The notes under the pieces are model-generated. The model did no database searches and was not told the origin of the DNA. It saw only the letters and a list, made by a program, of their open reading frames with translations. DNA of 60,631 bases, counting the filler, from Hausera hauseri (lineage: Eukaryota), in NCBI GenBank assembly GCA_046269625.1. It is 9 parts of 9 records of this genome, joined end to end, with 100 filler letters (N's around TTAATTAATTAA, not from the genome) between each part and the next. Parts side by side here need not be neighbours in the genome. Positions count along the whole stretch, not along the records: positions 54,446 to 60,631 come from JBJURY010127873.1; 8 more parts are not named here. One strand, 5' to 3'. Below are positions 7,091 through 60,631 of this stretch, piece by piece; within the stretch, counting starts at the first letter, position 1; each line of letters opens with the position of its first letter. The translations under genes were made by a program, and so were the position numbers.

Positions 7091-7428
7091 GCACAACGCT
7101 GATTATTGCCATATTGCAATGGCGCAGTACTATGGCGCCACAACGCTGCACGGTAAACGGGCCTATAAATGTCTCGCTTGTTCTATAGTTGATGAAATCA
7201 ACTACGAACAATTTTATAATAAGCACAAGGACACTTGAACCAGTTCCAGAGGTCCAAAAAGGAAATATTGATGGAGGCAGCAAATGCAGTATTCGTTCAA
7301 CAAGCAGAAAACGTCAAGTATCAACAAATCTTGACGAATACCTGCAAAGCAGCAACAGAGAGCATTAGCTGCAGCAGGAGCAGTAGGAAACGCCCATTAC
7401 TGTCACGTACGACCTAAACAGATCGTAC

Positions 7429-10023: not shown

Positions 10024-10123
10024 NNNNNNNNNNNNNNNNNNNNNNNNNNNNNNNNNNNNNNNNNNNNTTAATTAATTAANNNNNNNNNNNNNNNNNNNNN
10101 NNNNNNNNNNNNNNNNNNNNNNN
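10024..10123. other. Artificial contig linker
   Basis: N44-TTAATTAATTAA-N44. Confidence 0.98.
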
Positions 10124-19921: not shown

Positions 19922-19923
19922 AT

Positions 19924-19936
19924 TGGTGTCAGAAGT
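19924..19936 (+). promoter_or_regulatory. Primer-binding site, tRNA-Leu type
   Basis: TGGTGTCAGAAGT is complementary to the metazoan tRNA-Leu(CAA) 3' end ...ACTTCTGACA-CCA. Confidence 0.8.
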
Positions 19937-19965
19937 ACCAGGCCAGATACAGTTGCGATCGTGTA

Positions 19966-27200: not shown

Positions 27201-27228
27201 CTGGCAAAGGCAACTTATCTAATTCTTC

Positions 27229-30200
27229 TTGCTGCCACACTTTTTTGCAGTCTTTACACTAAAAGCTGCTATCTCCACTTCTAACATTCAATCCATAGAC
27301 TTTCTCATTGATAGCGGTGCAGCGATCTCATTACTGCCACTTTCCTTTCCAATTCAACATTCTTCACTTAAAACAAAATCGTTATGCACTGCCTCCGGCC
27401 AACCCCTTCATATTGCCGGAACTTGCAAATTATCTTTTACTCTCCCAAAATTTTCCTCACCATTTCATTGGACGTTTACAGTCGCAAACGTCCAGACGGC
27501 AATACTTGGCTCCGATTTCCTGTCGTAATATAACTTGCTAGTTGATTGTAACCAATGATGTCTGAAATCAAATACACCTAAAGACTATAGTACAGAAATA
27601 GGCAGACCCACCCCGACGACAGCACATCCAACAGTAAGTAGGCAATCAATCTTAAAACAGTCAACATCACTTCCTATTTCTCGTAACTATCACGTTTTAC
27701 CTCGTAGGCTGTCAAAGAACAATGCCCATAGTCAGTCACAGCTCAGTGTAGACGCTCACGATCTTGTATCTTCAGTAAAATCATTTAACACTAACTCTTA
27801 CTCGAGTAAGATCTCAGACACGACCATCCTACATCAAATTCCATTCGATACCCCACCAACAATAAACCAACATTCACCAAGTACTGCCAGCAACCTCGGT
27901 TCATTGTTACTTCCAATATTCCAACAACTACCAGTACGTTTACAACAATTCATCAATACTTATTGTCTTCGTATACTTCAGAAAGATCGAAATCTCACCT
28001 CTGTAAACGGCATTTACCACAATATAATTACACGACACCAAAGACCAATTCGACAAAAGGTCCGTCCATTGTAACCGCATCTCAGCCAGGCAGTAGAGGC
28101 GGAATTTTTTGAACTCGAATAATCAGGTATTGTCCGTAGATCTAAATACCAGTGGTCGTCGCCTATCCACGTTATCCAAATAAGATGGATTTTTCCGACC
28201 ATCTGGCGATTACCGCCAGCTTAATACTTTAACCATAATGGATGCATATCCACTACCATTAATCAGAGACATATTACATCGGCTTAATACTACTACAGTT
28301 TATTCAACAATTGATTTAGCCAAAGCTTACCACCAAATTCCTGTAGAACCGGAAGACATCGAGAAAACTGCATTTACCACACCTTTCAGTTTTTATAAGT
28401 ATTTGTACATGCCTTTCGGACGACGGAATGCTGCGCAGACTTTTCGTCAACACGCTGACTCAATCCTTTCAGACTTCCCTTTTGCGCACTCATATATTGA
28501 CAATATCTTGGTTGCTTCTTCTTTTGTTAAATTACACGAGGAACACTTACGATCTATCTTTAAACGACTTAATCAGTTCAATCTACAGATCGATTTTGCA
28601 AAGTGTAACTTCTTCCAAAAACTCGTTAATTTTCTTCGACATATTATCTCATCATATGGCCATTCACCTCAACCTGATCACGTTTAGATTTTTGAAAACG
28701 TCTAACTACCTAGAACAACCACAGAAATGCGTAGTTTTCTTAGTACCTTGCATTTTGTCCATAAATATATCCCATATTGTTTAGAACTCACGGCACCTTT
28801 TGCACACTTAAGCGTAGGAAAAAAACACCAGAAAATCCAGTGGACACAACAACTGGTTAACAAGTTTGATAGGCTACGCGAAGGACTAAAGACTGTTGAA
28901 ATACTAACATTTCCTAAGCCTGACACTGAACTAATTTTGACCACAGATGCATCAAACATCGAAGTAGGCGCCGTACTACACCAATTGTATAAAGGCGAAA
29001 ATCAGCCCTTAGAATTCTTTTCCCGAAAATTAACGCCGCCTGACACTAGATATTCAACTTTCGATCGGGAACTGCGGTCAATCGTTCTTGCTTTGAAACA
29101 TTTTCCCCATTTACTTACAGCTCGTTATTTTAGTGTACAGACTGATCACAAACCGTTGATTAATATAATGACAACGAAACACCTTTCAACTCGACAAGAA
29201 CGACAAATTTCATATTTGTCCAAATTTAACTTCGACATTAAACACATTGACGGTGTTGACAATATAGTTGCAGACTTCTTATCTAGATCAGTCGGTTCAA
29301 TCAATTTTTCACCAAGTTTTACTCAGACAAAACTTCAAGAAAATCAGTCATCTCAAGACATTCTCAAGTCATTCAAGTCGGACCACGTCGTTGACGGCGT
29401 GGCCTTAGATACTTCCAAACCAGGACAATCCAAAATAATTCTTGCCCCATTTTTACAGAAAAAAGTATTTGATAGTGTACATTCATTACATCATTCTGGT
29501 GCCAAGGCAACTTTTCGCTTACTTAAACGTCAAGTAGTTTGGCCGTCGATGCGCTCCGATGTGCAAGCATGGGTTAAAGAGTGCGTGGCTTGTCAGAAAT
29601 ATAAAACTATAAAACATTTAAAACAACCATTATACCACTTCCCCTGCACATCACGTTTCGAAACAGTACATATTGATATCGTCGGTCCCTCCCAATAGAG
29701 AACGGCCACTAATTTATTCTGACCATGATGGACCGTTCCTCGCCATGGCCGGGAGCCATCCCGATGCGCAATATAAACACAGACACAATAGCCGATACTT
29801 TCATTCGTACGTGAATTAGGAGGTTCGGGTCCCCTCGTTATATAATTTCAGACCAAGGTCCTCAATTTGAATCAAATCTGTTTAAATCCCTAGTCAACCG
29901 ATTGGGAATAAGCCACATTCATACAACATCTTATCATCCCCAATCGAATGGCCTTCTCGAATGTTTCCACCGAACATTGAAAACATCACTTAGAATCCTT
30001 GCACAGTCCAACACCAATTGGACTACTCTTCTTCCATTCGTTCTGCTTGGCTGGCGGAACACTCCGTCTACTTCCACAGGATGCTCACTAACGGAAGCTT
30101 TATTCAGAACCCCTGTATGGTCATTGTTTGAACTAACCGCTCTTGAAGGGACTTCTACAGATAAAAGGATACGAGCAGCACAGGATCACTTCGTTACAAT

Positions 30201-30916
30201 CAGCAAGGATTCGTTCTGCAGGCTCTTACATAATGACAAATCTTATATACCAGAAGACTTATACTCGGAAAAGTTTGTATGGTTAAAAAATCAGATATCG
30301 TGCGGTTTCCAGCCACAGTACTTAGGACCCTATAAATTAGTGCAGATGCATTCGCACAACGCTATTATCCTCAAAGACGGAAAAGAAGTTGTAAAGCGTA
30401 TTACTAATTTAAAACCCGCCCTTTACGTGGACGATACCTCACCAATCGAAACATCAATCTCTTTCCCCACCCCTGTACCTACCTCTACCCCGACTTCAAT
30501 TTCCCAGTCTACCACACATCATTCCGCTTTTCCCGTTTCTGTGCCTACATGCTCACCTACCAATTCCATTCCTGTCCCAATTTCTCCATTTTCCTCTGCT
30601 CCTACTTTTATCACTACGTTTGCTCCACACACTATTCTATACCTTCGTCTATTTCTACTTCCTCTCTCAACCTATCACCTTCCGAAACTATCGCAGAAAA
30701 CCGAAATAATTCACCTACAATCACCTCTTTTCCCTCTTCTCTATTACCCTCCTCAAACACAACACCCAATCATACTAAACCTGATGTTTCTTTTGCCAAA
30801 CCCCGCCAGCAGTCAGACACTAAAGTAAAGGTACATAATAAATCAGTTACATTCAGTACCTATAGTAGACAATTAAATAACAAAAAATTACAACGTCTTG
30901 TACGCACAAAAACTTA
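27229..30916 (+). pseudogene. Family A pol (PR, RT, RNase H, integrase, S/T/P tail)
   Basis: FLIDSGA, DAYPLP, IDLAKAYHQIP, YIDN (mutated YIDD), TDAS, TDHKPL, H...H..C..C, HIDIVGP, YHPQSNG and GPY, in Gypsy order PR-RT-RH-IN. Confidence 0.95.
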
Positions 30917-35717: not shown

Positions 35718-38246
35718 AGCGTTGAATACTCTTATGATGAAGGATTCTTTTCCTCTATCATCTGTAAAAGAAGCTTTAGATAGACTCTCAGGAGCACAAT
35801 GGTTTACTACTCTGGACTTACAATCCGGATATTGGCAAGTAGAAATTGAGGATGAAGATCGCTATAAAACCGCGTTTAAAATGCATAATGGCGTATACGA
35901 ATTCAACGTTATGCCATTTGGAATTACCACTGGCTCAGCCATATTTACCAGAATGATGAATAAAATGTTAATGGGACTTGAACATGCATTTGAGTACTTA
36001 GATGACGTAAGGATTGCATCAAAAGACGAAAAGGAGCATCTGAAGGATATTGAAGACACTCTCATGAGATTAGAACAAGCCGGGTTAAAGCTAAACCAAA
36101 CGCCGTATAGATAAAGCTAAAACGCCGCATCCTATCTTGGTTATTAAGTTGGCGAAGAAAAATCCAAGCCCGATATATCATTACTGAATAAAATTTCGGA
36201 CTATATGAAACCGCACAACCAAAAAGAACTGAGACATTGGTTAGGTTTATGCGGATATTATGCTACCTATGTACCAGATAACTCAAAAATCAACGCACCA
36301 TTATACAAATTATTAAAAAATGGAATAAAATGGAAATGGACCGATATTAAGCAAAAGGCATTTGATGAAATGAAGAAAATATTAACTAGCAAACCAGTAC
36401 TGAGATATCCTGACTTTAATTTACCGTTTATGATTAAAACCGATGCAAGTAAAGAAGGTATCGTATACGAATTAACACAAAAGTGCGAAGACGAAGAATT
36501 AGAACATCCAATCGCTTATGGAGGACTCTCCCTGAAGAAAGCAGAGAAAATTTACTCGGTGACAGAGTTAAAAACGTTAGCAGTAAAAGANNNNNNNNNN
36601 TAAGGCATTTTAACGTTTACGTATATGGAGAGAAGATAATAATTGTTACCGACTATAAGGTAGTTACAACTTTAAAGGGACGAGCAAACAACCCTACGTG
36701 TAGATTGAATAGATGGATTGAAGAGATCTCAAGATACAATATCGAATTCCAATATAAACCTGGTGCAAAACACGTAAATGCAAATGCATTATCCAGATTG
36801 AAGACAAAGACAAGTACAATTATGACAATGAGGAAAAATCAGCTTAAAGTATTAATTGACAGACAACGAGCTTTAGCATCAGACGGAGCAATTAAGCTTT
36901 CATATGAACAGAAGAAAAATCGAGTCATCCAAAAAATCATCGAGTATGTCGAAACGGATGTAATGCCAAAAAAACACCAGTTAAGGAAACATTTACAACG
37001 ACATTGACATAAATATTGTGTCTCCGGGAACAAGGACAGTGAAAAATTTTTGTATTATGAACGAAAAGAAAGAAAGTTAGTAGTCATACCGAAAATTCTA
37101 CGAACCGAAATATTAATGGCCGAACACGATTCGTATTTAGCAGGACACATGTCCTGAAAGAAAACGTTAGAGAGAGCGTTAAACAAATATTATTGGCCTA
37201 GTATATATATCGATGTGAAAAATTGGGTCAGCACTTGCGAAGTATAAGCTACTAAGTAGAGGAAAATGCGAAATTATGTAGCAGAATTGAAACCTATAGC
37301 TGTACCGGACAGACCAATGCAGGCCATGTCAATGGATATCGTAGGACCACTGCCCACGATGCACAAAAATAACAAGTATATACTAACATGCGTCGATCGT
37401 TTAACTCACTTTGTAGAATTAATAGCGTCATACGATCAGAAAGCAGAAACATCAGCTGAAGCTGTGGCGAGAAAAATTATCTGCAGATACGGTCCGTCCG
37501 ATCAGATATTAACTGATCGAGGAAGGAATTTCACCAGCGAACTGTTCGACAAAATTACGAAAATATTCTAAATCGAGAGGTTAACTACAACACCTTACCA
37601 ACCCCAGTGTAACGGAATGGTTGAGCGCATGAATGCTACTGTAATGCGAATATTGTCAACCGTAGTCGCAAAGGATCAGAAGGATTGGGATAAATATCTA
37701 GAAGGCACACAATTCTCCATTAATACAACACCACATTCCGCGACAGGTTTTACACCTTTCTTCATGATGTACGGACGAGAAGCAGCATTACCTACGGACT
37801 TAGGAATGATTCTGTATGAAGCAAACATTGAAGAGCTAGAACCAAATTTTGTAGAAGTTATACAAGTCAGATTAGAAAAGTGTTGGGAAGTAGCGAAGAT
37901 ACTATCTTTAGAATATCAAGAAGGATTTAAGAAACAATACGACAAAAAGGCGAAACCACATGATTTAAGGAACGGAGATTGGGTCTATGTTCACTATCCC
38001 GTAGCTAAGAAAGGCACATCGTTAAAGTTCACACGTACCGGAAGGGGACCGTACGAAGTTATCAAAGTAACACCCACCACCGTTTATATTAGTAAAAATG
38101 GAATGGAAGAAGTCGTGTCAATACAACGAGTGGTGAAGACAAAAATAAGACCAGAAAAACGATATCAATTACGTAGTAAGGATACAAAAACGAACCCGAA
38201 AACAAAAGGTAGGAAGGCCAAAACTTCGTCTATAGTTACCAGACCC
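35718..38246 (+). pseudogene. Family B Ty3/Gypsy pol (RT, RNase H, integrase)
   Basis: LDLQSGYWQ, MPFG, YLDD, TDAS, YSVTEL, H...GH/C..., MDIVGPLP, LTDRG.NF, YQPQCNG.VER.N, NTTPH..TG.TPF and GPY. It has stops and frameshifts, and a 10-N gap at 36591-36600. Confidence 0.95.
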
Positions 38247-39602
38247 ATGTATTACTTACAGATAGTCTTAGCACTATCACTGATAGCCTCATTTTTTCCG
38301 AAAGCCAATGCTCAAGGAGGGTTACTACAACAATTAAGCAAATGGATGAAGAATGAATTGATAAAAATAAAAAGAAACGATTTAAACACTTTGGCTCGTT
38401 TTAAGGTCCAAAGTATAGACCTACGACGAGACTATGTGCTATTTAAGACGGACGGAGCCGTGAAAAAATCAGTAAAATACCAAGTAGTTCTATGGAACGC
38501 AAATAAACGAGTAATGACTCATTGCGATTTTCCGTATGGAGAACAAGAACAATGTTGTGTCGTAAATTATGGAGATACTTATACCTTCACTATACTGATG
38601 TACTACAAAGATGATAAGCGCACACAAAGAGCAATAAGACCACAAGTAAAACTAGTCATACCAGCTAAAGAACGGGCTAACATAACAAAACTCGACGACA
38701 GTACAATCGACGGACCGCATCAAATGGGTATTAAATGAAAATATAATCAATATTTCAGCCAATAAGAACAACAAATGTATCCAAATAGACACAAAAGGAA
38801 GATTGCCAAGTAAACAAGAGATTTCAGTCCACTTTACCAAATTGAAAGAATCAAGTCCAACGCCTGAATATTGTAGTGTAAAAATCACGGATCTTAGGAT
38901 TTGTTGTAAAATTGCAGCAGATCATGAATATAGGATTCATTTCGACCTCTACAGAACTCAAACAAATAAATCGAGTATATATTTAGGAAGATATTATACA
39001 GACAGTAGAATTTGGAAAATTTTGGTTGAAACGACGACAACAGGATGAACTGTTATAAGTAAGCACTACTGTTAGGCTTATTACGGCAAAAAAGATGAAC
39101 AAGAAGAAATTACCTGAAATTCCTCTAAAATGCAGAGCACAACAGCGCAAAATTATATTTTCAGTAGAAGAAAAGCTCGACTATAGCGTCGAAATAAATT
39201 GCCGTACGATGCACAATAGTATAAAAACAACTTTATGGAAAGGCTTATATCAGACTGAATGTAACTCATTAACACCCAAGACAGAATGCATAATCCAAAT
39301 GCATGCAAAAGATGCTCAGAGTCAGACACTCACAACACAGACCCTAGGAGAAATACAAATAGCACCACGTGCAGACAAAAACACAAGACAAGAAATCACT
39401 AGAGATAAAAACTACAAAATCCGAAGGATTGACCACGTTATCCATAGTAATGATCGTAAGTCTGTCAACGCTTGTGTTTATAATATGCGTCGCGATATTT
39501 CGATTAGTTGCCGTAAATTGTCATACTAAGCGTACTAAAGTTACAGAACGGGAATTAAGAGTATGGGAACCCCAAGAATACGTCTATGATAAAATAACTT
39601 GA
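38247..39602 (+). pseudogene. Type I membrane protein with FN3-like beta domains, in frame behind integrase
   Basis: Signal peptide MYYLQIVLALSLIASFFPKANA, FN3-like signatures YGDTYTFTI and SLTPKTECIIQMHA, TM LSIVMIVSLSTLVFIICVAIF, and a tail ending YVYDKIT. Confidence 0.6.
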
Positions 39603-39716
39603 CAATTACAGATCGGGTTATTCTATCATCAAACAAAGGATTGGTTTTGGTTTAAAACTATACTTTGTTGTAAGATTAACTCTTACTGTCTGTTGTTTAG
39701 ATTGATAAATATCCAG

Positions 39717-40826
39717 ATGGATTCCGGGAGCAGCCCACGTATTATTGACAATCAAGCCCAGAAATCGAATTCAGGAAGCAGCCGACATAGTATCGACGAT
39801 AAAGCTCAGAAATTGAATTCAAAAAGCAGACGACGTAGTATCGACGATTTTCTGCAGAACTGTGCAACGGTACTAATCTCTCAATCTAAATCGATTTTCC
39901 GACAAATCAATAACGAGCTACACGGGAAACAATTTGCAGAATATAGAAGAACAAATGAGATCTCAAATAACTTAAAAGGAAGTACTGAGGAGAACCGGAC
40001 AGTACGATTATACGCAATGAGAGAGGATAAGGATTTGCGAGCGTACGCATTAAAACAACTTGTTCAATATTAACCAGTATATCACCAGAATATATTTATT
40101 CACTTAGCGGAAGGAGAAATCTATTACAGACTAAATGATCAAAGTTGGGACTCTGCGCAAGGACGCCAGCACAGATATTGTACTTTCTTAATCAATAGCG
40201 GAGATTTTCACCATTACAATTGTGAATTAGAATTTTGAGTCGCCGCACTGCCAGTCAAACTTATGATAGAAGTATGTTATGAAGACGCACCATTTATCCA
40301 GTTACCACCATTACGATTTCATCAAAGGCCAACTGATAAGGATCAAGACGACCACCTACACTACTTCAGATTAGTCCAAGGTAGAAATGCCAGGATAATT
40401 ACTGTAAATTACGGAGAAGCAAACGATGGAAATAACGTCCCAATCGGAGCATCTGTACGAGAGACAGGAGGAACAGAAATCTACACAGAATTAATCAGTC
40501 CCAGGAAGAGAGTACGAGAAACTTATCTAGAAGTTACTGGAATCAAAAAGGAGCAATTAGTTAACGGGAGAGACATCGAATTAGTTTGCGAAGAATTACT
40601 CCAATGCTTATATGGAAGTATACTTGTTGGATATCAAATAGAAAAGATCATGGAAAAGTTGAAATTGCCCTATACCCACGTGAGTGGGGTTAGAGAAATC
40701 GAGACCCACCCAGTAGTGATACAGCAGATGGAACAAACAGTTAGCAAGAGGAATGGTTATTTACCACCGACAGTAGAAGGCCTATTTAAGCTAATGTTGG
40801 ATGCTATGAGTGCAGAACACGTTTGA
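39717..40826 (+). pseudogene. Accessory ORF with REXO4/ISG20-like DEDDh exonuclease fold
   Basis: ARIITVN...IYTELISP..RV..TYLEVTGI..EQL.NG.....V.EEL...L.GSILVGY...REIET parallels ARVSIVN...YD.YV.P...V.DYRT.VSGI...L......V..EV..LL.GKILVGH...RDT. The N-terminus has a 48-bp repeat (S.R.IDD.AQK). Confidence 0.6.
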
Positions 40827-40929
40827 ATTAGCAGACTCTTGACAGCGAGCCAACGTTCCTAATATCTAAAAGATATATTCCGGATTTAAATGGGAACAGG
40901 AATGGAGTCCCGATAACCCTAGACAAAAT

Positions 40930-41946
40930 TTGCGAAGCACGACAAACCCCGAAGGATTAAATTCCAAACACAGAAGGCATTTTAGGCCTTATTCCCCCGT
41001 CAGAACAGTTGAATCAACAACAAGGGACAGTTACCGAGTTACAATCCAGAAAACGGAACCGAAACAAATCACCACGACAAACAATTACCCCAGCACCAGC
41101 CAAAGCCCAAATTCAGAGCCGGCCAAGCAAAGATCCAAGGATCAAGAAGAATTCAAGGTACCGAAGAAACCCGAAAGAAACCGAAAAGGCAAAGAAGTTA
41201 CATTTACCACGGGAAAAAGGAAACTATCGCTATACGAATACTTATTCAAAAAGAAGAATAAGGAAGAAGATAACCGAAAGGTAGTTGCAAAACCTAAAAA
41301 GCATGAAAAGACAGAAACCCAAAACGAAATAATAAAAAAGGAATCTCCGAACACCGAAACCCCTAATAAACGAAAAGAAAAGCACTCCGAAGAAATAAAA
41401 AGAAAGACTAAAACTCAAACCCAAAGGAGGAAATCAGACAACGATATCGCTATCACAGAAGTGAACGTCTTGAAAAAGAAAAGATCAGAAGAAAATGTGC
41501 ATTTCTCCACAAACAAAGAATTTCCCAGACTACTCGTAACGGCCGAATATTGTAGCCATCAGAAAATAAAGGAAGCAATGTTTTATGTGAAGAACGCTGG
41601 AATATAAGAAATACCAGATAGAGCATACGCTTGGGAAAACCTCAGCATAGGAAATTATTTAGCCCCAATTTTTAGGTCCAAAAGGACTGGAAAGCTGTCC
41701 GTTCCTGTGAACAACCAAATTAAACTAATGTTTAAAGGGCAATATCAAGCTTACCAAAAGGAAGGTGAGATTCCCGACTTAGATAAAAAAAACATTATGA
41801 ACTGGACATTAGTCCCAGTAAATTATGATCCTAAAGACTTCAATCAACCCCCAACAAAAAGAACTATACGGTTACCTATATTCCGATCAAGATGGACTAA
41901 TATTCGAACGAATCCAGATTGTACCCTAGGTCGACTTAGACGATGA
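40930..41946 (+). pseudogene. Lys/Glu-rich low-complexity accessory region
   Basis: 225-aa ORF plus continuation, highly basic with NLS-like clusters. Confidence 0.5.
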
Positions 41947-42262
41947 TGAAAATACGAACGAGAACGAAGACACTTGCTCAGTATGTAACGAAAATATCTG
42001 GCAAGGGTACGTTAAATTGGACAATCAAGCGTGTAGACACAGATACTGTAGCACGTATTTAGAGATATGGACGTTGAATAACGGGAAAACGGCATGTCAA
42101 GTATGCCGAGCAGAGGCTGATGGATTGAAATATTTCTCGAACGATGAGTGTAACAGATCTGTTCCTATCCAAAGTCAGTCCAGTACTAGCTATACAATAG
42201 AGGCGGAGCCAGTTGACGACAGTAGTCTCCGGAGTAGACTGAAACTGCTGCACCGACAATAA
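41945..42262 (+). pseudogene. C3HC4 RING finger (one Cys mutated to Tyr)
   Basis: CSVC-x15-CRHRYCST(Y)..W......CQVCR starting at 41975. Confidence 0.8.
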
Positions 42263-42319: not shown

Positions 42320-43141
42320 TGTTACAGAATGTATATATGATACGATAATAATTATTAGGCGAACTGTGACATAGTAGTGTTATTTTACAATATTAATATT
42401 TATGTTATTAGTTAATCGGAATTTTATATGATTTGTACATAATTATCGGAATTAGGAATCGAAGGAATGCACAGATAAATGCACAAACAATTGCTTGTAA
42501 TTCATAAATAATTAGAAAAACGGAAATTAATCAATGGATAATCTAATAAAAATGACGTAATCGTCCAACTAGTTTAGTATATAAGGCGATGGATTTTGCA
42601 GTTAAACAGTCGTTGTTGACTTTTGAACAGTCGAACTTGTAATCAATTCGAACTTGAAGTTGCGAACGATTTGAAATCGAGAACAGTTGAACTAACAGAA
42701 CTTGACAAAGATCAGAACTTGCGAAATTTACAGAACAGTCGAAGTTGAAGACAGTGGAAGTCGAAAACAGACTGAAGTTGAAAACAAAATCCGAAAACAG
42801 ATTGATTGATTTTAATTCGATACCGAGGTATCAGGAAAAAGTAATTGTTGTTATTGTAAAATATATTGTTGTTTATAAAATCTTCTCTATAGTTATTCTT
42901 TGCCCCTCAAGGGTGATTTGACTACACTAAGGCATAAATTTTAGTGTAAAATTACATAGATAAGAGAGATTTATTTCAAACTACGCACAGGACAGCACGC
43001 AGTACCCGCATAAAATTATAAAAGTCTATAAGGCACATCCTGATTTACCGAGAACGGTAAACCGCACCTGCGAAATTTTAAACTTCTAATAAACTATTGT
43101 TAGATAGTGGGAGACGTTAGGGCCCATCCCAAAATCTAACA
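42320..43141 (+). mobile_element. Family B LTR (822 bp)
   Basis: Inverted ends TGTTA...TAACA, PPT AAGGAGAAA at 42311-42319, TAGTATATAAG at 42575-42585, AATAAA at 43088, internal aacagtcgaa repeats, and a PBS 2 nt downstream. Confidence 0.9.
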
Positions 43142-43143
43142 TT

Positions 43144-43161
43144 TGGCGACCCTAGAAGGAC
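43144..43161 (+). promoter_or_regulatory. Primer-binding site, tRNA-Arg type
   Basis: TGGCGACCCTAGAAGGAC shares TGGCGACC...AGGAC with the PBS at 5610-5627. Confidence 0.8.
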
Positions 43162-43280
43162 AGTTTGTGCCTCGCTATTACTTCAGCTCAGAGTTAATTA
43201 AAGCAACACCCCGCGATCAGCGCATCATACCAATTAATTGAATCGAATAGGTTATATAAAATTTGGGATAAGACCCGATA

Positions 43281-44747
43281 TTGAATAAAAGGGAATTTAG
43301 AAACGCAAATATTGACAGACGTAATCGATCGGAACATTTAAACCTAAACGGTAAGGAAAATTTAAACATAAGACGAACCCGTAGTAAAGTACGAACGAAT
43401 TCAGACGATAGGCGTACATTATCCGAGTCACGAGAAAATTTAACCAGGTTATTAGACCAAGATCAAGAAGTAAATTTTAAAGTTCCGCCTAAAGTAACCG
43501 ACCGACGTAAAATAGAAAATAGAATAGACGTAAATACGAATAATATGACAGCTGATACGACTAGACAGAAATTAGACATTTTCACGTATGAATCATTGAA
43601 TTTACCAGCATACGACGGCGATCCAGGACTGAATGAATTTTTAAGAAATTATAAGCTTCACGCTGAAGGCATAGGGTTAGAACCTCAGCAGATGATTAGA
43701 CGATTATCGCTTTACTTAAAGAATTTGGCCGCAGATGCCTACGCCGAGTTGACGGACGAAGTAAAAAGAGATTGATCATCATCAATAAGTCCATTAAATA
43801 GGAAATTATTATCGACGGTAACTCCACAACAAAAGTTAATGGCATTTCAAAATAGGATGCAATAAAAGCGCGAATCGGTCACCCAGTTTGCGTTTGCTTT
43901 AAAAAAGTTAGCAAATAGTTATATTAGTACTCTAAGAATTTCAAATATGGCTAAGGCAAAATATGACGCCGAACGTACAGCCGCAGAAAAGGCAGTTCCG
44001 TCAGATTTGGATGTAATAATGACAACACAATTAATTAATGGTATTTGGTCAAGAGACTTGGTAAAACAATTAATCTTAGCAAGGCCAGAAAACTTCGAGA
44101 AAACATTTCAAATGGCACAAGACCTAGACAGATATGCTAGGCAAAATGAAAGACAATACAGAGACGTTGAACGAAATGAGCGCAATGAGCGCACCGATAG
44201 AAATAGAAACAGTGGACGATTCCACGAACATAGTCAAAATCGAAATTTCGATAATAGGACGGATAGGAATCCACGTTATGGAAATAAAAGCTTTGACAAT
44301 AATCGGAATTTAAACAGTATGAACGCGGCAAAGCCGAACTACAACTCGAACAAAGATGGTTATGAGGGCAATAAAAAAAGTTTCAAAAATAAAGATGGAA
44401 AGAGATACAATGATTTTAGAAACAATGAAAACAGATATGACCGAAGTAGTCGGATAGAATCTGTAAATCAAAGTTATTCTATGAACGACAGTCGCTCAAA
44501 AACTCATATAAATGAGGACGGTCGACAACGGATTGGGAGAAACGGAAATTTAATATGTTATACATGTGGCAAGGAAGGTCACATAGCTAGATCATGTTCA
44601 AATCCGCGAAGTGTTTCATTTATCGAACCGACGAAAGCAAGTATGATTAAGACACAAAAACATTTAGAGTCAAAATATGGTCCCAAAGGCGACATAGACG
44701 CAATTTTGGATATTCAAAACTCACGTCGATATTTGAAAAGCCAATGA
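43281..44747 (+). pseudogene. Family B gag with CCHC zinc knuckle
   Basis: LPAYDGD...NEFLRNY...L.LYLK..A...Y capsid-like segment, R.Q...ESV..FA..L, an N/R/D-rich linker and CYTCGKEGHIARSC. It has internal stops. Confidence 0.88.
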
Positions 44748-44879
44748 GAAACAAACAATCCGCAAATCCTGAAGGATTGGAAAGAATACGAAGATAACAT
44801 ATGGATATTAGACGTATATTATAGACTAGTTGAACCTCGGACAAAATATGAGTACTTAATAGCGCCAGACAATAGTAAT

Positions 44880-46716
44880 ATGGTTCGCAAGAAAAACGTG
44901 CCTGAAAAATCTGCAGAAATAAAAGAAGTGACCGAAGTTGGAGTAGCGACGACATCGTTTAATGTAGACTTGGACGCAGAACCTGAAAACCTGACAGAAG
45001 GACATCAAGATGTGGCTGACGAAACCGAAAGTGAATATATAGCCCCATTAGTCCTTAAAATAACGAAAAATAGAGGTCGTAGTCCATTACTTAAAAGGAA
45101 GTCAAAGGTTCGATCAAGATCTCCAATAAAAAGAGAATGCAGAAATAACTCAAGTCCGAGATGCAGACACAGACGACATTCCGAGCTTAGACACTCCAGA
45201 TGTGGAGCTTACTTAGTTACGGATGTTCCAAGCACGAGCGTAACAATAGGAGACGCGGACAGCGAGATAAACGAGATATGTCCACTGTCCTAGAGCGAAG
45301 GCAGAATTGATGGCACGGAACAAATCAAAAAGCTAGATGGAAAATTATGGAGGATTAGAAAATCCTGGAAAAATGCAGAGAATTTGAAAGAAATTAGAAT
45401 GGCACCAACAGATACGGAGACAATACGTCACAATCTGGAAGAATTAAGACGTATAAAAACTCAAGTATATGTGTCAGGAAAAGAACAGCAATTTGCCGAA
45501 AGAATGTATAAAGAATTCAAACAATACCTTGAGGAGGATCTTAACAAAGAGAAAGAACCAGAACAAAAGTATGAAATTGTGGAGAAGTCAACTGATGAAT
45601 GGAATACACAACTAGATTTGTGGATAAAAAGCGGAGTCGATTTCATAGAAACGTGGAACAATCAAGAAATAGAAATCAGAAGCAAGGTGACAACTGTCCA
45701 AGAAATACTTAAGATATTAGAGATGGATCCAAAGCAGAAGCGCACAAAACGGAATTTAGAGAAGCTAATGGTAGAAATAGAAAGTTTAGTAATCTATCAC
45801 CTCAAAAATAAACCAACATATGAATTGGATGAAAATGAATTGTCAATACTAGGCATAGAACCGGTAGACATTCCTCTCATAATGGAAATGTGTAAGATCG
45901 CGTTCAGCGCACCAAAAGAATATGCGAATATAGGAATTCGCATAGCCTCGCAAGACAAAAGGCGCTCCAAAATCTAGAGATGTAGAAATAAAATAACAGA
46001 TGCGGAAAACCAAGAAGTGCAAAGCATAACGTTATAGTGCGTTTTAGAAATGGACGATTACAAGAAGGAGATTAACTACGTTAAAGGAGTAATTGATTAT
46101 ATCAAAGGCCCAGATGATAAATTAAAGGACGCCTACGAACGATTAGAGAATGTAATAAACGCGAAACTAATGATAGATAACCAACTCCAAGAATGAATCG
46201 AACTATTAGACAGATTGGTGGATCTAACGCAATATCATCTAAGAAAATATTCAGAACGTAAACCCATATTAAAACAACAGCTAAAGGAAATACTTCGTAA
46301 CCTTGATGTGTACAAAATAGAGGCAAAACTTCGAGTTGAATTTAATGCGTTATCGAGACTAAGAATTATGAGTAACTATCCGGAAATGAAACTCACAGAA
46401 GAATTGTATACCATGATTGAAGAAATGGAATTATCAGCAAAACAAAAAAGGATCTCCTCCTTATCGATCAGACTACAAGGTGTCCACCTAGAAGGTGTAC
46501 GACATTTGATAACAAGGCCCATAGATGAAATATCAATATGTGATCTATCGACGTTGGATATTTGTCCATATCATCGGAAAGCGTTAGAAGAAGTACTAAA
46601 TCAACTACATCGTCCTTCCGAGTGGGCATCGGATACCGACCAGAATGGTCACGCTGAATTAATAAAAATAACCAAAGATCATCGCCTCACACCAGACAAA
46701 GCTAAATTTGTAAAGA
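44880..46716 (+). pseudogene. Unidentified accessory ORFs after gag (RS-rich and coiled-coil-like)
   Basis: ORF pieces of 137, 197 and ~167 aa on the gag strand. No protease motif occurs within 2 kb of gag. Confidence 0.5.
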
Positions 46717-47081: not shown

Positions 47082-47123
47082 TGTATTAGAGCGATAGATT
47101 TGTGTCTCTAACTGCCGAAGACT

Positions 47124-48410
47124 ATGTCTAACTCCACCTACGGACGTAAGCTCAATCCCTACAGACGTCTCCGCGAACCATATGGGATCAAAGCCGTGCG
47201 GCAGTCTGTCGTCATCACGAATAATCCGAGCACGATAGACCAAAATCAGCAGCTCTTAGTTCGCTTCCCCAACCTCGGCGACCATGACTTAATCATTCCA
47301 AGCACCACGCGGTTGGCCTTCACGATTACGCTCGACTCCACCGATGAAAACAGGACTGTCGTACAGAATCTAGGGCGCGCTATTGTGAAAAAGATGACGG
47401 TCCGCATCAGCGGAAATGAGGTCTTGTCTCTCGATGACTCAGACGTCTACCACTGCTACGGTGATCTCTGGAAGACGGCCCAGGAGCGAAGGAATGCTCA
47501 GTACCAGGGCATCGACACCTCTGCCGCCAGGAATGTCACAAAGCTGCGAATCGGAGCCGACGATGCCACCGCCGGGACGGAAGACGAGGCGATCGCGAAA
47601 GCCTACGGCAACAGATTCCACATACCTCTAGACTTCGAGCTGCTTGAGAGCCACATGCCGTTCTACCAGAGTGCACTCGGGGACAGGCTTGAATACGAGC
47701 TGACGTTCAATGACTACAGCCGCGTAATCCAGGCAAAGAGTGAAGCCACTTATAAAATCGACAACATATCGTTGGAGTACGAAACGGTCACCCTTCCAGA
47801 ACTAGCCAACCTAATCCGCAGCCAATACGCAGGACGCCTCGTGATCTACTACGACCGTGTTCTTCGCCACCGTAAGATCCCCAAAGACAAAAGTGATACC
47901 CTGTGGAACATTAATCTCAACGTTCCAGCTAGGAGCATGAAGGGCATACTAATGCTCTTCGAGGACCCCTCTAAGCCCTATGCACGCGATACAGAAGCCT
48001 TTTATAACCCCCAGATCGAGAAGGTTGAGGTTACAATCGAGGGTTTGCCCAATCAACTCTACAGCAAAGGCATGCACGCGTATCAGGCTTGGGACGAGAC
48101 ACGAAAATTCTTCGCCGCCGGTAGCAAACGACATCCCGAGGTAGCGGCAGTCGCAAAAGAGCTCCAACTGGCTAACGTTTCATTAGGAGAGTTTCTGACC
48201 ACAAAGCACGCTCTGTGGCTCGATCTCAGAACGACCGACGACGACCAGCTCCACGGCACCGGGCGAGGGGTTGAAAATGCTTCCGAAGGTATTACGATTC
48301 AGATTAGCAAGGCCGCTCAAGGAGCCGGTGCATTGAACCTTTATCTATTTGTCGTTATGGATGCGCAGCTTAATATCGAGAATGGTAGATACCACTCCGC
48401 AATATTCTAA
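47124..48410 (+). CDS. Putative double-jelly-roll major capsid protein
   Basis: Uninterrupted 428-aa beta-rich ORF (TNNPSTIDQNQQLLVRFP, LAFTITL, LEYELTFN, NISLEYE, LWLDLR) next to the packaging ATPase. Size and context fit a Maverick MCP. Confidence 0.8.
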   Translation: MSNSTYGRKLNPYRRLREPYGIKAVRQSVVITNNPSTIDQNQQLLVRFPNLGDHDLIIPSTTRLAFTITLDSTDENRTVVQNLGRAIVKKMTVRISGNEVLSLDDSDVYHCYGDLWKTAQERRNAQYQGIDTSAARNVTKLRIGADDATAGTEDEAIAKAYGNRFHIPLDFELLESHMPFYQSALGDRLEYELTFNDYSRVIQAKSEATYKIDNISLEYETVTLPELANLIRSQYAGRLVIYYDRVLRHRKIPKDKSDTLWNINLNVPARSMKGILMLFEDPSKPYARDTEAFYNPQIEKVEVTIEGLPNQLYSKGMHAYQAWDETRKFFAAGSKRHPEVAAVAKELQLANVSLGEFLTTKHALWLDLRTTDDDQLHGTGRGVENASEGITIQISKAAQGAGALNLYLFVVMDAQLNIENGRYHSAIF

Positions 48411-49035
48411 AAATTGCTCTCTGTTTCCGAAGGACCCTCACTCAGCAATTATTATTGGACAGACAGGCTGCGGCAAAACGGAATTTATACTCGATCTCCT
48501 CGAGGGTCCCTACAGGAACGTGTTTTGCTTTATCGTGATTCTGTGTCCGACCGTACGCTACAACAAAGCCTATCGCAGCCGCCCGTGGGTTTGGAGTGAT
48601 CATAGAATTTTCGTGCTCAACCCCGGGGAACATCTACACGAATGGCTCAGATTGTTATACAAATCGTTCAAGGGCAAGTCTACATTGTACATCATCGACG
48701 ACATGGCCGCCTCGAAGGCTCTAACCAAGAAAAAGGACATGCTTTCAGAGCTAGCGTTCTCCGGCCGCCACGCACTGCAGAGTGTATGGGTGCTGACCCA
48801 AAAATACAACTCGGTCCTTACCGACCTCCGTGAGCAAACCCGATGGATAGCTCTCTTTCACTGCAAGGACCGAGATAGCTTTGCTGAATGTCTTCAGGAG
48901 AACGATGTAATTCCCACTAAAGAGGAGAGAGCCAAAGTGCGAGAACTTTTGGCAGCAACTAAACACGCTAAGGTTGTGCTAAAGACCGACCAACCCTGTG
49001 CTTATAAAGTGCTAATGGCTGGTGAGTGTTGCTGA
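48382..49035 (+). CDS. A32/FtsK-family DNA packaging ATPase
   Basis: Walker A GQTGCGKT, Walker B LYIIDD, arginine finger GRH and SVWVLTQ. The ATG overlaps the capsid gene end. Confidence 0.92.
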   Translation: MVDTTPQYSKNCSLFPKDPHSAIIIGQTGCGKTEFILDLLEGPYRNVFCFIVILCPTVRYNKAYRSRPWVWSDHRIFVLNPGEHLHEWLRLLYKSFKGKSTLYIIDDMAASKALTKKKDMLSELAFSGRHALQSVWVLTQKYNSVLTDLREQTRWIALFHCKDRDSFAECLQENDVIPTKEERAKVRELLAATKHAKVVLKTDQPCAYKVLMAGECC

Positions 49036-54445: not shown

Positions 54446-57291
54446 TAGTTCGCTTGTAAAGTTTCTTCCTCTATCAATCAATATTTGATCAGGCGGTCCG
54501 TATCTGCAGATGATTTTCCTTACTACTGCATCTGCTAGTATTTTCGCTTTCTGATCAATTAATGCGATTAAATCCACAGTGTGTTAAACGGTCTACGCAT
54601 GTCAAAATATATTTGTTATTTTTATGAGTCGTAGGTAAAGGTCCTACTGTATCCATAGATATGGCCTGCATAGGTCTATCGGTTCCAATTCTGCTACGTA
54701 GTTTCTCACCTTTCTTTGTTTCATTGTACAGATTTCACAAGCGTCCACCCAATTTTTCACGTCGATATAAACACTTGACCAGTAGTACTTATTCAATATC
54801 CTTTGTAATGTTTTCTTCCATAACATATGTCCGGCCAAATGTGAATCATGTTCGGCCATTAACACTTTTGTTTGTAATCCTTTTGGAATAACTACCAATT
54901 TCCGTCCCTTTCTTTTGTAATATGGAATATTATCCAAATTTGATGCATAATATTTGTGTCCGTGTCTCTGTAAGTGTTTCTTTAGTTGACGCCCTTTTGG
55001 TATCTCGTCTTGCTCTACAAATTTAACTATTTGTTGTATGACTTGTTCTGCAGAAATTCTAATCATTTTATTTAGTGTCAGGGTCTGTTGTCGCTCGACC
55101 AATTCTTCGAGCTGAGCTTTCTTCATGGTTGTAATCGTACTTGTCTTTGTTTTAAGTCTTGATAGAGCATCTGCGTCTACATGTTTACTTCCGGATTTAT
55201 ATTGAAATTTGATATTGTACCGTGAAATTTCTTCAATCCATCGATTCAGTCTACACGTCGGGTTATTAGCCCGTCCCTTTAGCGAGTAACAGCTTTATGA
55301 TCGGTAACGATAATAATTTTCTGTCCGTAGACATAGACATTAAAATGTCTCAAGGCTTCTTTCACGGCTAGTGTCTCTAATTCAGTGACTGAATAGTTTT
55401 TCTCAGCTTTCTTAAGCGATCGTCCTCCGTAGGCAATTGGATGTTCTAATTCTTCGTCTTCTCGTTTCTGAGCTAATTCATAACCAATTCCTTCCTTACT
55501 TGCGTCTGTTTTAATTATAAATGATAAATTGAAATCCGGGTATCTTAACACTGGTTCACTCGTTAAAATTTTCTTCATTTCGTCGAATTCTTTCTGTTCA
55601 ACATCGTTCCATTTCCATTTGATGCCTTTTTTCAATAGTCGATATAACGACGCATTTATTTTCCAGTTGTCTTGTACGTATGTGGCATAATATCCGCATA
55701 GACCTAACCAATGTCTTAACTCTTTTTGATTTTGGGGTTCCATACAATCCGATATTTTGTTTAATAAGGATTTGTCTGGCATCGATCCTCCTTCTCCAAC
55801 TATATGTCCAATGTACGATACGGCATTTTGTGTCCATTTACATTTCTTGTATTTCAATTTCAATCCGGCTTGTTCCAATCGCATAAGAGTATCCTCAATG
55901 TCCTTTAGATGTTTGCCTTCTGTTTTTGATGCTATCGTTACATCGTCTAAATATGCGAATGCGTGATCTAGTCCCATTAACATCTTATTCATCATTCTGG
56001 TGAATATGGCTAGACCGGTTGCTATGCCAAACGGCATGACGTTAAATTCACTAACTCAATCGTGCGTTTTAAATTCTGTTTTATAACGATCATCTTCTTC
56101 AATTTCTATCTGCCAATATCCTGACTGTAAATCCAACGTGGTAAACCATTTTCCTCCTGATAATCTATCTAGGGCTTCTTTTACTGATGGTAGCGGAAAT
56201 GAGTTCTTCATCATAAGTGTTTAGGTCTCGGTAATCTATACAGAATCGATGCTTAGTGGTGCCCTTTTTCTTAACCATGAGTATTGGTGAGTATCAATAT
56301 CGATATTTTGGTCGTATTATGTCGGCCTTTAACATGCGTTCTACTTCTTTTGTTATTTCGAGCCTTAACGAATGCGGTAATGGGTATCATTTAGGCATTA
56401 TTTGTTCTTTCAAGTCAATTTCATCGTTGGAGCCAGGTTTCTTCTCTAGTGGAATCGTTAATCTTAGTGCTTTTGCCCTGCTTATATCTTCTTCATTTTG
56501 GGTAATGATGACTTATATTTGCATAGTATTTCGTAAAATTGACAATACGCTTCCGGCCAAAACTTAGTTTTAACATAAGGTGGAAATTCAGAATATTTAT
56601 ATGGTTTTTCTTCGATTGTTATAGCTGACACCTTATAAGTATGTCCCAATGTAGTGTTGGCGTACAGCTTTGCGGGAGTTGATGCATTGTTTACTAATCT
56701 GATAGGTACCCTTCCTGTCGTTACTCTTGCCAAAATGTTACTAAGTTTGATATTTGGATTAACGTCATCTTGTGGTTCAGAATATACTGGTTGGTCATCT
56801 TCTTCGCGGATTTGAGTATAAATTATCATTTCGGTTTTGGGCGGAATATTTTCGTTGATGGGGATCCATACTTCTATCTGCTTCCTTTCTTTCATTGTTT
56901 TAATCCCTTTCACTGGCCCAAGTTCAAGTAGTTTTCCAGTCTGTAAATTTATTGCAATATTAGGTAATTTTTTCATTATATCACATCCTAATACTACGTC
57001 GTCTGTAAGCTGGCCCATTATGGTGACGTCGTGTCGAAGGATTTGTCCCATTAATTGGACTAGAGGACTCCATTTAAACTTTAGTTTGGATTCTTGGCCA
57101 AAGGCTCCTATGCTACATGGGTCTGATGATGATGTTGGCTGTAATTGTTTTCGTAGTGTCGGCGGTATCGATTCTAATTTGATAAACGACATCTCTGATC
57201 CGGTGTCGATTAAGGCATAAACTTCCCAATCCTCTATGGTGACGTTTGTGAAGGGTGTTCCTTCCATAACTGACCCATAACAACTCGACAC
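54446..57291 (-). pseudogene. Family B pol, second copy (PR, RT, RNase H, integrase N-part)
   Basis: ALIDTGSEMSFI, VVLGCD, LDLQSGYWQ, YLDD, TDAS, TDHK and H...GH/CEIC. The peptides are near-identical to 35718-37560. Confidence 0.95.
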
Positions 57292-57846
57292 GTCTTTTGG
57301 TCGTTAAATCGAAGAAATCTTATGTCAGTTTATCGTTATCCCTGGTGATGAAATAATATTTTCAGTCAGTTGTTTCAGTTCTTCGTTAGGGTATAAGTCG
57401 TTAACTGCCATGTTATTCGTATTGTTTCTAATTAATGGTTCTTTTACTATTGGATTTTGGAACGATTTTACTCCTTGTGTTCCCCAGACTGTTGATCTTG
57501 TTTCTATATTGCGGGCTATCCTCGGTGAGTACAGTATCCCATGGTCATCTTTCGCTCGTCCTTGGTAGTGATCTGCATTTTCTTTAATACTCCGTATTGT
57601 TTTGTTCCTTCATAAGGATCTTTATAGGTGAAGGGTTTTCCTTCAAAATGCCGATTTATATGACCTCATAGATGTTTTATCACAGTCCTCGTATATCGGA
57701 GCCGTTGGCTGCATGATAGGTAATGTTGCTGTAATTACTGAATACATTCTATGTCTATTTTGTCCAAGGATTGCTTCTCCTCCCTTAGGCTCGTCATCAT
57801 CGGAATTATCTCTTCGTGTCATTGGTTTCTTGGTCTTGTGTTTTAA

Positions 57847-59730
57847 TCAAAATATAGGTCTTGCTCGTCGTTCATAATTATAGTAGCCGAAATGGCGTTC
57901 AACATCATTTTTCCATCGATTTTCTTCATAGGCCTTAAGCACTTTGCCGAAGGGTGTGATAACTGCAGTTAAGATTTTACAGGAAAATCCTGTTAGCGTG
58001 AATATTTCGTACCCGTTTATAACCGCTTGCATTACCTCCTTAACTAGTTGTACTATAAAATAGATTGCTAGGAATCCATATGCAGCTTGTCCAAAAATTA
58101 AAAATCTTCCCCATATTTTGTAGAGTATTTCTGTGGTTAATCGCTGGTAATGGTTCNNNNNNNNNNACTGATGCCATAGCTCGGTTTGATTTGTATGTTC
58201 GCTGTCGTGGAAAAGCGAGAAATTGTCGAAAAGCTTCGATCTCTTTTGGTCTGTAAATGCCTTTTTGATATTTATCCTTGAATTTGTCATCGGTAATTCC
58301 TTTTGCTAAATTAGTTCTAGTTAGTTTTTTAGGAATAATAGTGACATCTCCATTGGGTAAGCTACCCCAATCCGTTTCGCTATGCCTAAGCATTGGTTCA
58401 CCCAAACTTGCCTTACAATCTTTTAGAATAGTTGGTTGTGTCGCATTATCGAGCAACAATCTGGTAATAGGCATAACTAAGCGCGGAGTATTTTGATAGA
58501 TCACAGGAAGTTCTTGTATGCATCGTTTTTTCTCGATATTAATTGGTACATCTCTTTTCTCGCATTCATTAATTAATAGAACTTCACCAGTAACTCAACC
58601 AAAAATTCCTTCTTTCATGAGAATGATCGGTGAGGCTAATTCTGGGTTTGCATAAATGAGGGCTAATTTTGTCCTCATGATTTCTGTATCTAATTTTCAG
58701 TCATTAGTTATCATTTTGTTGTATAGTTCGGCTACTCCGACCTGTCCTTTATAATAGAAATAATCGTCTCAATTTTTCAGATAATCCTCGATTCTAATGG
58801 CTTGTGTTTCTAGGTTGTATGTTTTCGCGTTTATCTCCGTTCCTGCAACGAAGAACGCTTCGTAATTAGTAGTGAACATTACTACTTCGCAACGTGAAAT
58901 CATTTCCTTTTTTATGAATTTCAATATATGTTGATCAGAGATTAATATTGTAGGTGTGTGATGCTCTGATACGTCTTCACGTGCTCTTGAACTGATGTCG
59001 GATTTATCTACGTATCGTTTTCCGGTAGTTTCATTAAATTTCAATTCTTTAATCTCAATAAAATTAGAAGCCTTTCCGGTGGGTGGTTCCGATATGACGA
59101 CAGAGCTTCTGAAGGCACAAGTTCCGTCTTGCATGTGACATTTTTGATTTTCAGTATATAACTTAGTAACGATATGGAACATTACTTTTTGAACTCGCAT
59201 TTCCGATGCGTAAAAGTCTACTACCACTACGTTTGCTTTAGTCCTTTGCCGGTATCGTATTCCGTTCCACTACAGTGCCCGTTATGCACATCCAGCCTTC
59301 CGGCTACTATCTTATACGCTCTGATTATTTTTCCAGGCTGAATTTTTAATTCCATACTATCCCATTTCAGTCTTCCGGTTTCTCGGCTTGCTTGCAATGT
59401 TGTCTCTCCAAATTCATTGGAATTGGAGGGGTTGTTGGTTTAATTATCGAGGAGTGTCCGTGCATTAGTCCACAATAAAAAATGCTACGACATCGTCTCA
59501 GCATACATTCCATGCCATCCAGGGATATCAACTCTTGTTGTTGGTATAGCATAATGCTCTTCTTTTTTGTTTCCAGTTTATGTGGTCTGGCATCTTCACA
59601 TGATTATAAGTCTATCAGTGAATATTTCTTTCCCAGATTAAATCTATCACAATCGTAGACGGTAACAGCACCCATTTGTTTTATTAACATGATTATGGTG
59701 AGCAAACTGATTAACCAATTAGATTCGTTC
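57847..59730 (-). pseudogene. env: chuvirus-type (class III-like) glycoprotein upstream of protease
   Basis: Signal peptide then VYDC...YSL..C...LYQ...C...R...YCG..H..S, G.C.G, NPELA...GEV..I.EC...RC.QELPV.Y.N.....P.TRLL, GIY...E....R.FL, and WGRFLIFG....GFLAIY.I..L.K......I.GY......G.S.KIL.A. It has frameshifts and a 10-N gap at 58157-58166. Confidence 0.82.
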
Positions 59731-59861
59731 TTCCGGTTGTTGTTATCCGTTGTCGTCAAGTTGCGTATGACGTCTTCGAGTCTATTGTTATTTCTCTTGC
59801 CTTCTTCATTGTCAAACAATTTTGGCCAATTTACTTCACACGGAAGTTTTCTAGACGCTTT

Positions 59862-60631
59862 TCATGCCAAACTCGTGGCTCGATTTAGTTCATTTTCTCG
59901 ATTAGGATTTGTCTTAATTGCCAAGTACAATAATATTTTTCTAAGCTCTTCTATCGTATTCTCCACCATGATTTTCTCGACTATTGCGTCGTCAGTTAGG
60001 CTATTTTTTGAAAGTTTAAAACGCGAAATTTTCATTGTTCGGGCTGCGTTAAATACTGCCTTTTCTTTCTCGTCTAATGTATCTCCGCGGAGACTCGAAT
60101 AATTAAAAATATGTATTAAATTTTTCATTAACTCGCTTAATTCTTCATTATCTGTAATGAGAGTAGGAATCGACATTTGTCTCAATTCTCTAATCAGTTC
60201 TCCATTATAGTCAATTTCTTCTCGGGGTTTCCTAGGCCTGCCGACTGGGCGTTTTGGTCTCGGAGTCTTGGCTGGCATTTCACTTAGCGGTACTAGATTC
60301 TTGTCGTATTGTTTCTTGTCCTCATCCGTCTGTAAATATTGGAAGTACATCACTGCATCTCGTACTCCCATGACTTGTCCTACACAATGGTCCGTTTTAG
60401 CTTTACGCGTGGCTTCTTCCTTTGTCTGTTCATTGGCTATTATTACTACAATCCGATCTATTTCGCCCGGTACGATTCCGACGTCTATTAGTTTTTCTAA
60501 ATCGTCGAGTATTTTTCCTCTAAAGTAAAATCTGTAATTTAGCTCATTTGTTCCGCCATTGTTTAGTAACCATTCTCTTACGTCCTTAACGTAGGAATGA
60601 GTAGTTAACTCACATTCTTTTTCGTCCACCC
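59862..60631 (-). CDS. Accessory protein with ubiquitin-like domain and AT-hook (5' partial)
   Basis: VKDVREWL...YRFYFRGKILDD..KL.DVGI..G...IVV resembles the Ubl core without a di-Gly. KRPVGRPRK is an AT-hook. Confidence 0.65.
   Translation of the reverse strand, partial: VDEKECELTTHSYVKDVREWLLNNGGTNELNYRFYFRGKILDDLEKLIDVGIVPGEIDRIVVIIANEQTKEEATRKAKTDHCVGQVMGVRDAVMYFQYLQTDEDKKQYDKNLVPLSEMPAKTPRPKRPVGRPRKPREEIDYNGELIRELRQMSIPTLITDNEELSELMKNLIHIFNYSSLRGDTLDEKEKAVFNAARTMKISRFKLSKNSLTDDAIVEKIMVENTIEELRKILLYLAIKTNPNRENELNRATSLA

Follow-up and report, generated by a model that had tools for sequence, protein, structure and literature searches.

The element on the final contig (54446-60631) of the 60,631-nt stretch analysed here (the window, a series of short contigs separated by N linkers) is very probably a decayed copy of a repeated Ty3/Gypsy family. 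Its herpesvirus gB-type envelope glycoprotein (G, or env) follows a ubiquitin-like (Ubl) domain and precedes the protease, and likely formed part of a single Burro-like Gag-Ubl-Env-PR-RT-RH-IN polyprotein. The env-before-pol layout has already been published, for Burro among others, and the focal element is therefore likely a member of a known group rather than a new kind of virus. With this headline claim already in print, the focal copy alone adds little. What is useful is comparative. The domain succession of Burro (Gag, Ubl, a weak Bcl-2, Env and Pol within a single ORF) recurs in relatives from public assemblies, of which L001 and L002 also carry a post-pol exonuclease ORF matching that of a sibling copy found elsewhere in the window.

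The glycoprotein frame runs on the minus strand from about 59714 to 57928. Three pieces of it, scanned separately, match the Pfam family PF24664 (Monjiviricetes_fusion) with E values of 6.1e-12 (model positions 5-116), 6.9e-22 (246-498) and 3.7e-14 (530-601); they are collinear with the model and each exceeds its curated cut-off of 27 bits. The broken chuvirus-type G that had been read from the sequence alone at 57847..59730 is thus real. The frame carries four in-frame stops, counted over the four pieces used, and shifts three times (2>1>0>1), with one of the changes spanning a 10-N gap at 58157-58166. As it stands, the focal copy is unable to make its protein. Intact ORFs, which are lacking in this copy given its stops and frame changes, serve in PMC13524379 as a filter for intact elements and are not a lineage trait.

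The ectodomain is gB-like and of class III, with hydrophobic segments on both sides. The first of these, at 59658..59714 (minus strand; Kyte-Doolittle 19-mer 1.96, from 59714), stands directly ahead of the ectodomain and is likely an internal signal or membrane anchor; a comparable hydrophobic segment precedes the D-C motif in the aligned relatives. The second, near 58018-58074 on the same strand (1.75, from 58074), bears out the C-terminal membrane region described earlier. A fold model of the middle 366 residues, built from an 81-row alignment with stops read as X, reached a pLDDT of 86.6. In Foldseek searches with this model, herpesvirus gB filled the top 10 PDB rows (E about 5e-03 to 9e-03, probability 0.98-1.00) and the leading rows in the viral library BFVD were chu-like virus glycoproteins (E 2.3e-14). 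Together with PF24664, these rows provide the class III and chuvirus match that the sequence-only reading had called for, and they identify 57928..59714 as a broken, chuvirus-like class III envelope glycoprotein with the predicted fold of herpesvirus gB and chuvirus G. At the sequence level, the middle piece had no match in the PDB, a scan of viral contigs gave no match, and a word-based search among longer proteins returned nothing for the middle piece, whereas a full HMMER search with G matched 204 proteins at E 0.001 or better.

The sequence-only reading had treated env as an ORF of its own. The flanks argue for a different organization, with shared frames, few stops and relatives that align across 57847. 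On the protease side, one frame carries the G tail, the spacer and the protease; over 208 codons it is interrupted by 6 stops, compared with 14 and 21 for the two alternative frames. Relatives align into this region from both sides: P0003 (to 57700), P0007 (to 57784) and P0008 (to 57787) continue past 57847, while P0004 (from 57411) and P0156 (from 57384) align from the spacer into the protease. Position 57847 is probably not the natural end of G, and the env tail and linker at 57304..57927 (minus strand) likely once coded for part of the polyprotein and have since decayed.

On the other side of env, 59715-60629 contains a single stop in 305 codons in the frame in which G starts, compared with 30 and 32 in the other frames. 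The Ubl domain (60426..60629, minus strand) lies at its far end, where the window cuts off the 5' part of the domain; it reads in frame with the start of env. The Pfam ubiquitin match there is weak (E 0.0066, under the curated cut-off); residues 1-70 were modelled mostly at pLDDT 61-84, and the best VIA-align rows were ubiquitin folds (Z 8.2, rmsd 2.0, 61 aligned). The complete 420-aa upstream model averages a pLDDT of 41.8 and is of low quality outside the Ubl, so the fold search covers the Ubl only. A weak ubiquitin family match also precedes env in the relatives L003 and P0107, and the Ubi2/SUMO-like domain upstream of env that characterizes Burro is present in the focal element. Between the Ubl and env, a linker at 59715..60425 (minus strand), delimited by stop counts and by its alignment to P0107 (residues 504-902, 25%), contains a basic RPVGRPRK motif, which we take to be AT-hook-like, and a helical region. 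The helical part occupies the place of a Bcl-2-like domain in relatives, where Pfam gives weak Bcl-2 matches (P0009, E 0.00096; L003, 0.025; P0107, 0.055). A Bcl-2-like domain was not found in the focal linker with a profile built from seven relatives, which missed the region; the PDB profile search for Bcl-2 gave nothing relevant, and Atlas searches gave nothing for the Bcl-2-like part of P0107 and, elsewhere, only low-score ubiquitin-like leads.

No Gag was detected in the focal contig up to the window's end at 60631, and the Gag of this copy likely lies beyond it; the link between Gag and the focal env comes from the relatives and the sibling contig. We infer from the frame and stop counts that the env of the focal element was flanked in frame by Gag and Pol, an arrangement observed directly in relatives, and on sequence grounds env was likely encoded as part of a single Gag-Ubl-Env-Pol polyprotein and not by a gene of its own. 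The gag-env-pol order proposed earlier hence stands in part: env is upstream of pol, but the focal contig has no Gag, and the order itself was already published.

The pol domains are those of a Ty3/Gypsy (Metaviridae) element, with Pfam matches in the order RVP, RVT_1, RT_RNaseH and Integrase_H2C2, i.e., PR-RT-RH-IN. The aspartic protease, together with a pre-RT region common to the relatives, occupies 56482..57303 (minus strand; RVP E 1.5e-05). Its frame starts at 57303, 544 bp from 57847, confirming the spacing of ~550 bp and the pol type that had been read from the sequence, and LIDTG is found at 57213. Next, at 54446..56481 (minus strand), come a broken RT, whose YLDD is at 55953, RNase H and the integrase, of which the zinc finger and the beginning of the core remain before the end of the contig cuts it off; these domains were identified by Pfam and by tblastn with relatives. 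The best matches for PR, RT-RH and integrase are in each case env-pol polyproteins. Between PR and RT there was no Pfam or PDB match for a dUTPase-like domain; a region conserved among the only three sequences compared is present there. In seven of the relatives (P0003, P0004, P0007, P0008, P0013, P0017 and P0156), apparently at least two aspartic-protease-like stretches lie between env and RT.

The element is repeated. Aligned to the focal stretch at 80% or more, 21,909 contigs from run X1 and 1,786 from run X2, most of them less than 95% alike, covered 30 of 30 bins in each run, although the depth in these runs is no copy number and one of them may be the source of the window. Env bins are covered by diverged contigs just as pol bins are, and thousands of such contigs in two runs attest to a multicopy family. 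The check proposed earlier, for the same env-pol junction in multiple copies, gave piecewise bridges: the G tail is connected to the spacer by one listed piece, 296 bases long and with 58 differences, and the protease side to the spacer by a contig that links 57267 with 57445. Among the contig pieces listed none spans the whole focal stretch. With the same order in relatives and diverged contigs over all bins, env before pol is a heritable layout and not a stray endogenous viral element (EVE).

A sibling copy of the same lineage lies on another contig of the window. Its RT-RH-IN region (35718..38200, plus strand) matches the focal one at the nucleotide level at 71-78% in four arms; the two pols are 75% identical in protein and pair with a support of 100 in the tree. 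Three more parts of this copy help to fill in what the focal contig lacks. An RNase T-type exonuclease-like accessory ORF after pol (40239..40826, plus strand; RNase_T E 0.0059) matches the post-pol ORFs of L001 (E 7.3e-09) and L002 (7.2e-08), and is the only one of the sibling accessory ORFs to match relatives. A likely LTR of 822 bp (42320..43151, plus strand), read from the sequence as TGTTA...TAACA after a purine tract, has behind it, at 43144, a TGG site resembling a primer-binding site; only one LTR copy is present in the window. Finally, the sibling Gag (43272..46716, plus strand), with a capsid-like region, a CCHC knuckle (zf-CCHC E 2.1e-06) and a long same-frame continuation to the contig end, has 7 stops in its frame and matches the N-termini of P0107, P0012, L001 and L003, all of which have env further on. 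The order of the sibling parts (pol, accessory ORFs, LTR, Gag) points to an assembly that runs through a single LTR or a tandem pair. From the summed parts of the two contigs, the length of the family can be put roughly at 16 kb or above.

Several other observations were made on the sibling contig. About 4 kb of accessory ORFs follow the integrase (38200-42262), including a hydrophobic segment and then beta-rich ORFs with no Pfam match. The last of the accessory ORFs, at 41930..42262 (plus strand), is RING-finger-like (zf-C3HC4 E 0.0018, under the cut-off) and had no match in the relatives. At 44748-46716, the Gag frame continues as a long coiled-coil-like stretch with no match in the relatives tested. 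Exonuclease ORFs are reportedly known on LTR elements of rotifers.

The best identity of the focal G to any of its relatives is 31%. L001 is a single ORF of 3703 aa with the order CCHC-G-PR-RT-RH-IN, L002 a single ORF of 3426 aa with G-PR-RT-RH-IN, and in L003 a CCHC-Ubl region is followed by G in frame across one stop. In 7 of the 11 top homologues, protease and/or RT follow G in the same protein; among the 18 G homologues scanned, pol came after G in 10 and before it in 1, and at the threshold used the other 7 had G alone. A CCHC knuckle precedes G in P0013 and P0107, the latter, which aligns over 60530-59385, having the order CCHC, ubiquitin (weak), Bcl-2 (weak) and G. L001, L002 and L003, the three loci from a metagenome scan, all agree, two with Env then protease and the third with Gag then Env; a first metagenome scan had given no loci, and a scan of genome contigs with P0005 gave none. 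P0005, an env-pol polyprotein, is filed at NCBI under a Flavobacteriaceae metagenome bin and is likely animal DNA in a bacterial bin. In P0016, an exonuclease-like stretch recognized by eye at about residues 130-300 lies inside the polyprotein just ahead of env and not after pol. P0156 (4844 aa) has ankyrin and C2H2 matches and recalls Burro in its size and ankyrin repeats.

Two published descriptions come closest to these features. In the planarian element Burro, according to PMC6431247, one ORF encodes Gag..Ubi2/SUMO-like..BCL-2..Env..PR..dUTPase-like..RT; its env, which has matches to mononegavirus fusion proteins, was presented in 2019 as the first to be joined in frame to gag on one side and to pol on the other. 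The focal element resembles Burro/GYPSM1, as described there, in env before pol, in an env similar to mononegavirus fusion proteins, in a Ubl upstream of env and in accessory ORFs. It differs in that Bcl-2 and dUTPase-like domains were not detected in the focal copy and that no MATH, BIR or ankyrin domain occurs in the part seen, and in size, Burro being given as >30 kb against the rough 16 kb or more of the focal family with its 822-bp sibling LTR (PMC6431247). Since these two domains were not found, Gag is on another contig and Burro was compared by its description, the claim made here is that the element works like Burro and is likely kin to it, not that it is Burro.

The second description, in the part of PMC13524379 consulted, is of elements in which a gB-type env resembling Chuviridae G adjoins a Gypsy pol, with GAG-ENV-POL order in Nematoda, Bryozoa and Platyhelminthes; its table has 221 ENV_HSV entries, and two Schmidtea families have 45 and 215 copies. 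The focal element has the features examined for such a gB-type env-before-pol Gypsy, sharing with these HSV/gB-type GAG-ENV-POL errantiviruses the Ty3/Gypsy pol, the gB-type env, its place upstream of pol and the multicopy state (PMC13524379). By eye, the start of the focal ectodomain is closer to the Schmidtea C1a rows (FYCG, HSS, TGxLK, NGxCxG) than to the Bryozoa C2b rows shown there. Unlike those elements, the focal copy is broken, and its Ubl module and the exonuclease ORF have no description in the part of that source consulted. The Drosophila errantiviruses gypsy and ZAM likewise combine a Gypsy pol with a fusogen, but their env is F-type and a separate ORF after pol (PMC13524379).

Phylogenetic analysis bears on how env came to be there. 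In a 29-row RT-RH-IN tree, for which 20 of the 59 other full-length matches were used, the focal pol is sister to six env-pol polyproteins; its branch is long (1.29) and the SH-aLRT of 91 stays below the star level. An RT-RH-only tree of 77 rows, from 126 matches plus three rows of the window, leaves it unplaced and not with the env-pol group. The long branch and this lack of placement would fit a separate GAG-ENV-POL Gypsy lineage that acquired env through recombination with a Burro-like relative, such that the env module is shared, pol ancestry is not and env may be its own ORF, as would the undetected Bcl-2 and dUTPase-like domains and the statement in PMC13524379 that GAG-ENV-POL elements are not monophyletic in pol. 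We regard this explanation as improbable, given that the PR, RT-RH and integrase all have env-pol polyproteins as their best matches and that the sibling exonuclease and Gag match the same env-pol relatives.

For the glycoprotein itself, an unrooted tree of 91 rows (90 of the 152 matches, those long enough, plus the focal G) places the focal G inside a 15-row clade of long polyproteins with an SH-aLRT of 99. It is not nested among the chuvirus-side rows and stands apart from both the named Chuviridae G, P0079, and P0075, in which a DUF5641 is followed by a G that falls on the chuvirus side; we take the DUF5641 to be a BEL/Pao link. AU tests on 30 of the 91 rows, with the pairs chosen after the first tree had been seen, rejected a clade of the focal G with P0075 (p 1.7e-06), supporting the earlier proposal that this lineage is apart from the BEL/Pao-linked G sampled, and a clade with P0079 (p 7.4e-24). 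The trees have no root and the direction of env transfer is therefore not readable from them.

The sequence-only reading had gone further, proposing an independent capture of a jingchuvirus G by the focal Gypsy lineage that founded a new enveloped group. A chu-like virus G is indeed first in the structure search and the Pfam family is named for Monjiviricetes, yet this scenario is now very unlikely: the focal G lies in a retroelement clade, its grouping with the Chuviridae G is rejected by the post hoc test just described on the unrooted tree, and both Gypsy elements with the same glycoprotein in GAG-ENV-POL order and Burro were already published (PMC13524379 and PMC6431247), the former arguing for an ancient env-pol association. 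Although no clear Gypsy capture of G is described for arthropods in the part of PMC10084718 consulted, where Gypsy fragments often flank Jingchuvirales G EVEs without capture, a chance chuvirus EVE beside, or copied by, a Gypsy element at one place is the most improbable explanation of all, with G and pol in one ORF in the relatives, env bins covered by diverged contigs like the pol bins, and the 296-base bridge and the 57267-57445 joining contig.

Two known systems were also considered and set aside. The focal G shares PF24664, the cysteine pattern and the class III fold with Jingchuvirales (Chuviridae) G, but at about 15-25% identity, in a separate clade and embedded in a retroelement polyprotein; a Jingchuvirales EVE, with G nested among chuvirus G and no fixed link to pol, is contradicted by the trees and by the relatives' G-pol ORFs. 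Anakin, a mosquito BEL/Pao element, is likewise an LTR retrotransposon with the same glycoprotein family; membership would imply a BEL/Pao pol and a G in the Anakin clade, whereas the focal pol is Gypsy, of another superfamily, and the clade with the DUF5641-linked G (P0075 as stand-in) was rejected.

On the preferred reading of a Burro-like polyprotein, and drawing on established retroelement and class III fusogen biology together with the domains, order, decay and relatives observed here, an intact ancestor would produce one long protein from LTR-driven RNA. The hydrophobic segments before and after the ectodomain would let only the ectodomain enter the ER lumen while Gag and Pol stayed cytosolic, and signal peptidase and the element's own protease would free the parts. 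Trimeric Env could then mediate fusion of particles with neighbouring (germline or stem) cells, where Pol would copy and integrate the RNA, while the Ubl, Bcl-2-like and exonuclease parts may act on host death and defence pathways.

Only tentatively, as a possibility we hold to be rather unlikely, Burro might be one branch of a wide and old clade of enveloped Gypsy viruses whose fixed kit is a Gag-Ubl-Bcl-2-like-Env-Pol polyprotein plus a post-pol exonuclease ORF, with an env lineage apart from chuvirus G and maybe sister or ancestral to it; the focal element would be a divergent member from a host group unrecorded for the clade. If these elements do form one clade across phyla, they could serve to study how a Gag-Pol polyprotein gives rise to a membrane protein and in which direction class III fusogens have moved between retroelements and negative-strand RNA viruses.

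No tRNA genes were found over the 60,631 nt of the window, whose remaining contigs hold other features. A second Gypsy family, which lacks env, is represented by decayed copies with about 75% similarity at 16139-18911, 26211-30828, 23021-24507 and 2349-3011, and ORFs without assignment lie upstream of such copies at 19894-22269 and 24913-25922. The contig at 46817-54345 (GC about 50%) is Polinton/adintovirus-like, with an intact 432-codon major-capsid-like ORF at 47112-48410 (Capsid_N E 0.0084), and an A32 packaging ATPase at 48337-49035 (E 2.9e-13); further pieces, which by eye resemble an integrase and a polymerase, are broken. Broken protein-primed-polymerase-like pieces, also recognized by eye, at 7387-10071 are perhaps a second Polinton fragment. 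At the start of the window, 1-1695 is an uninterrupted 564-codon ankyrin-repeat ORF whose homologues, 25-34% identical, are of mixed origin.
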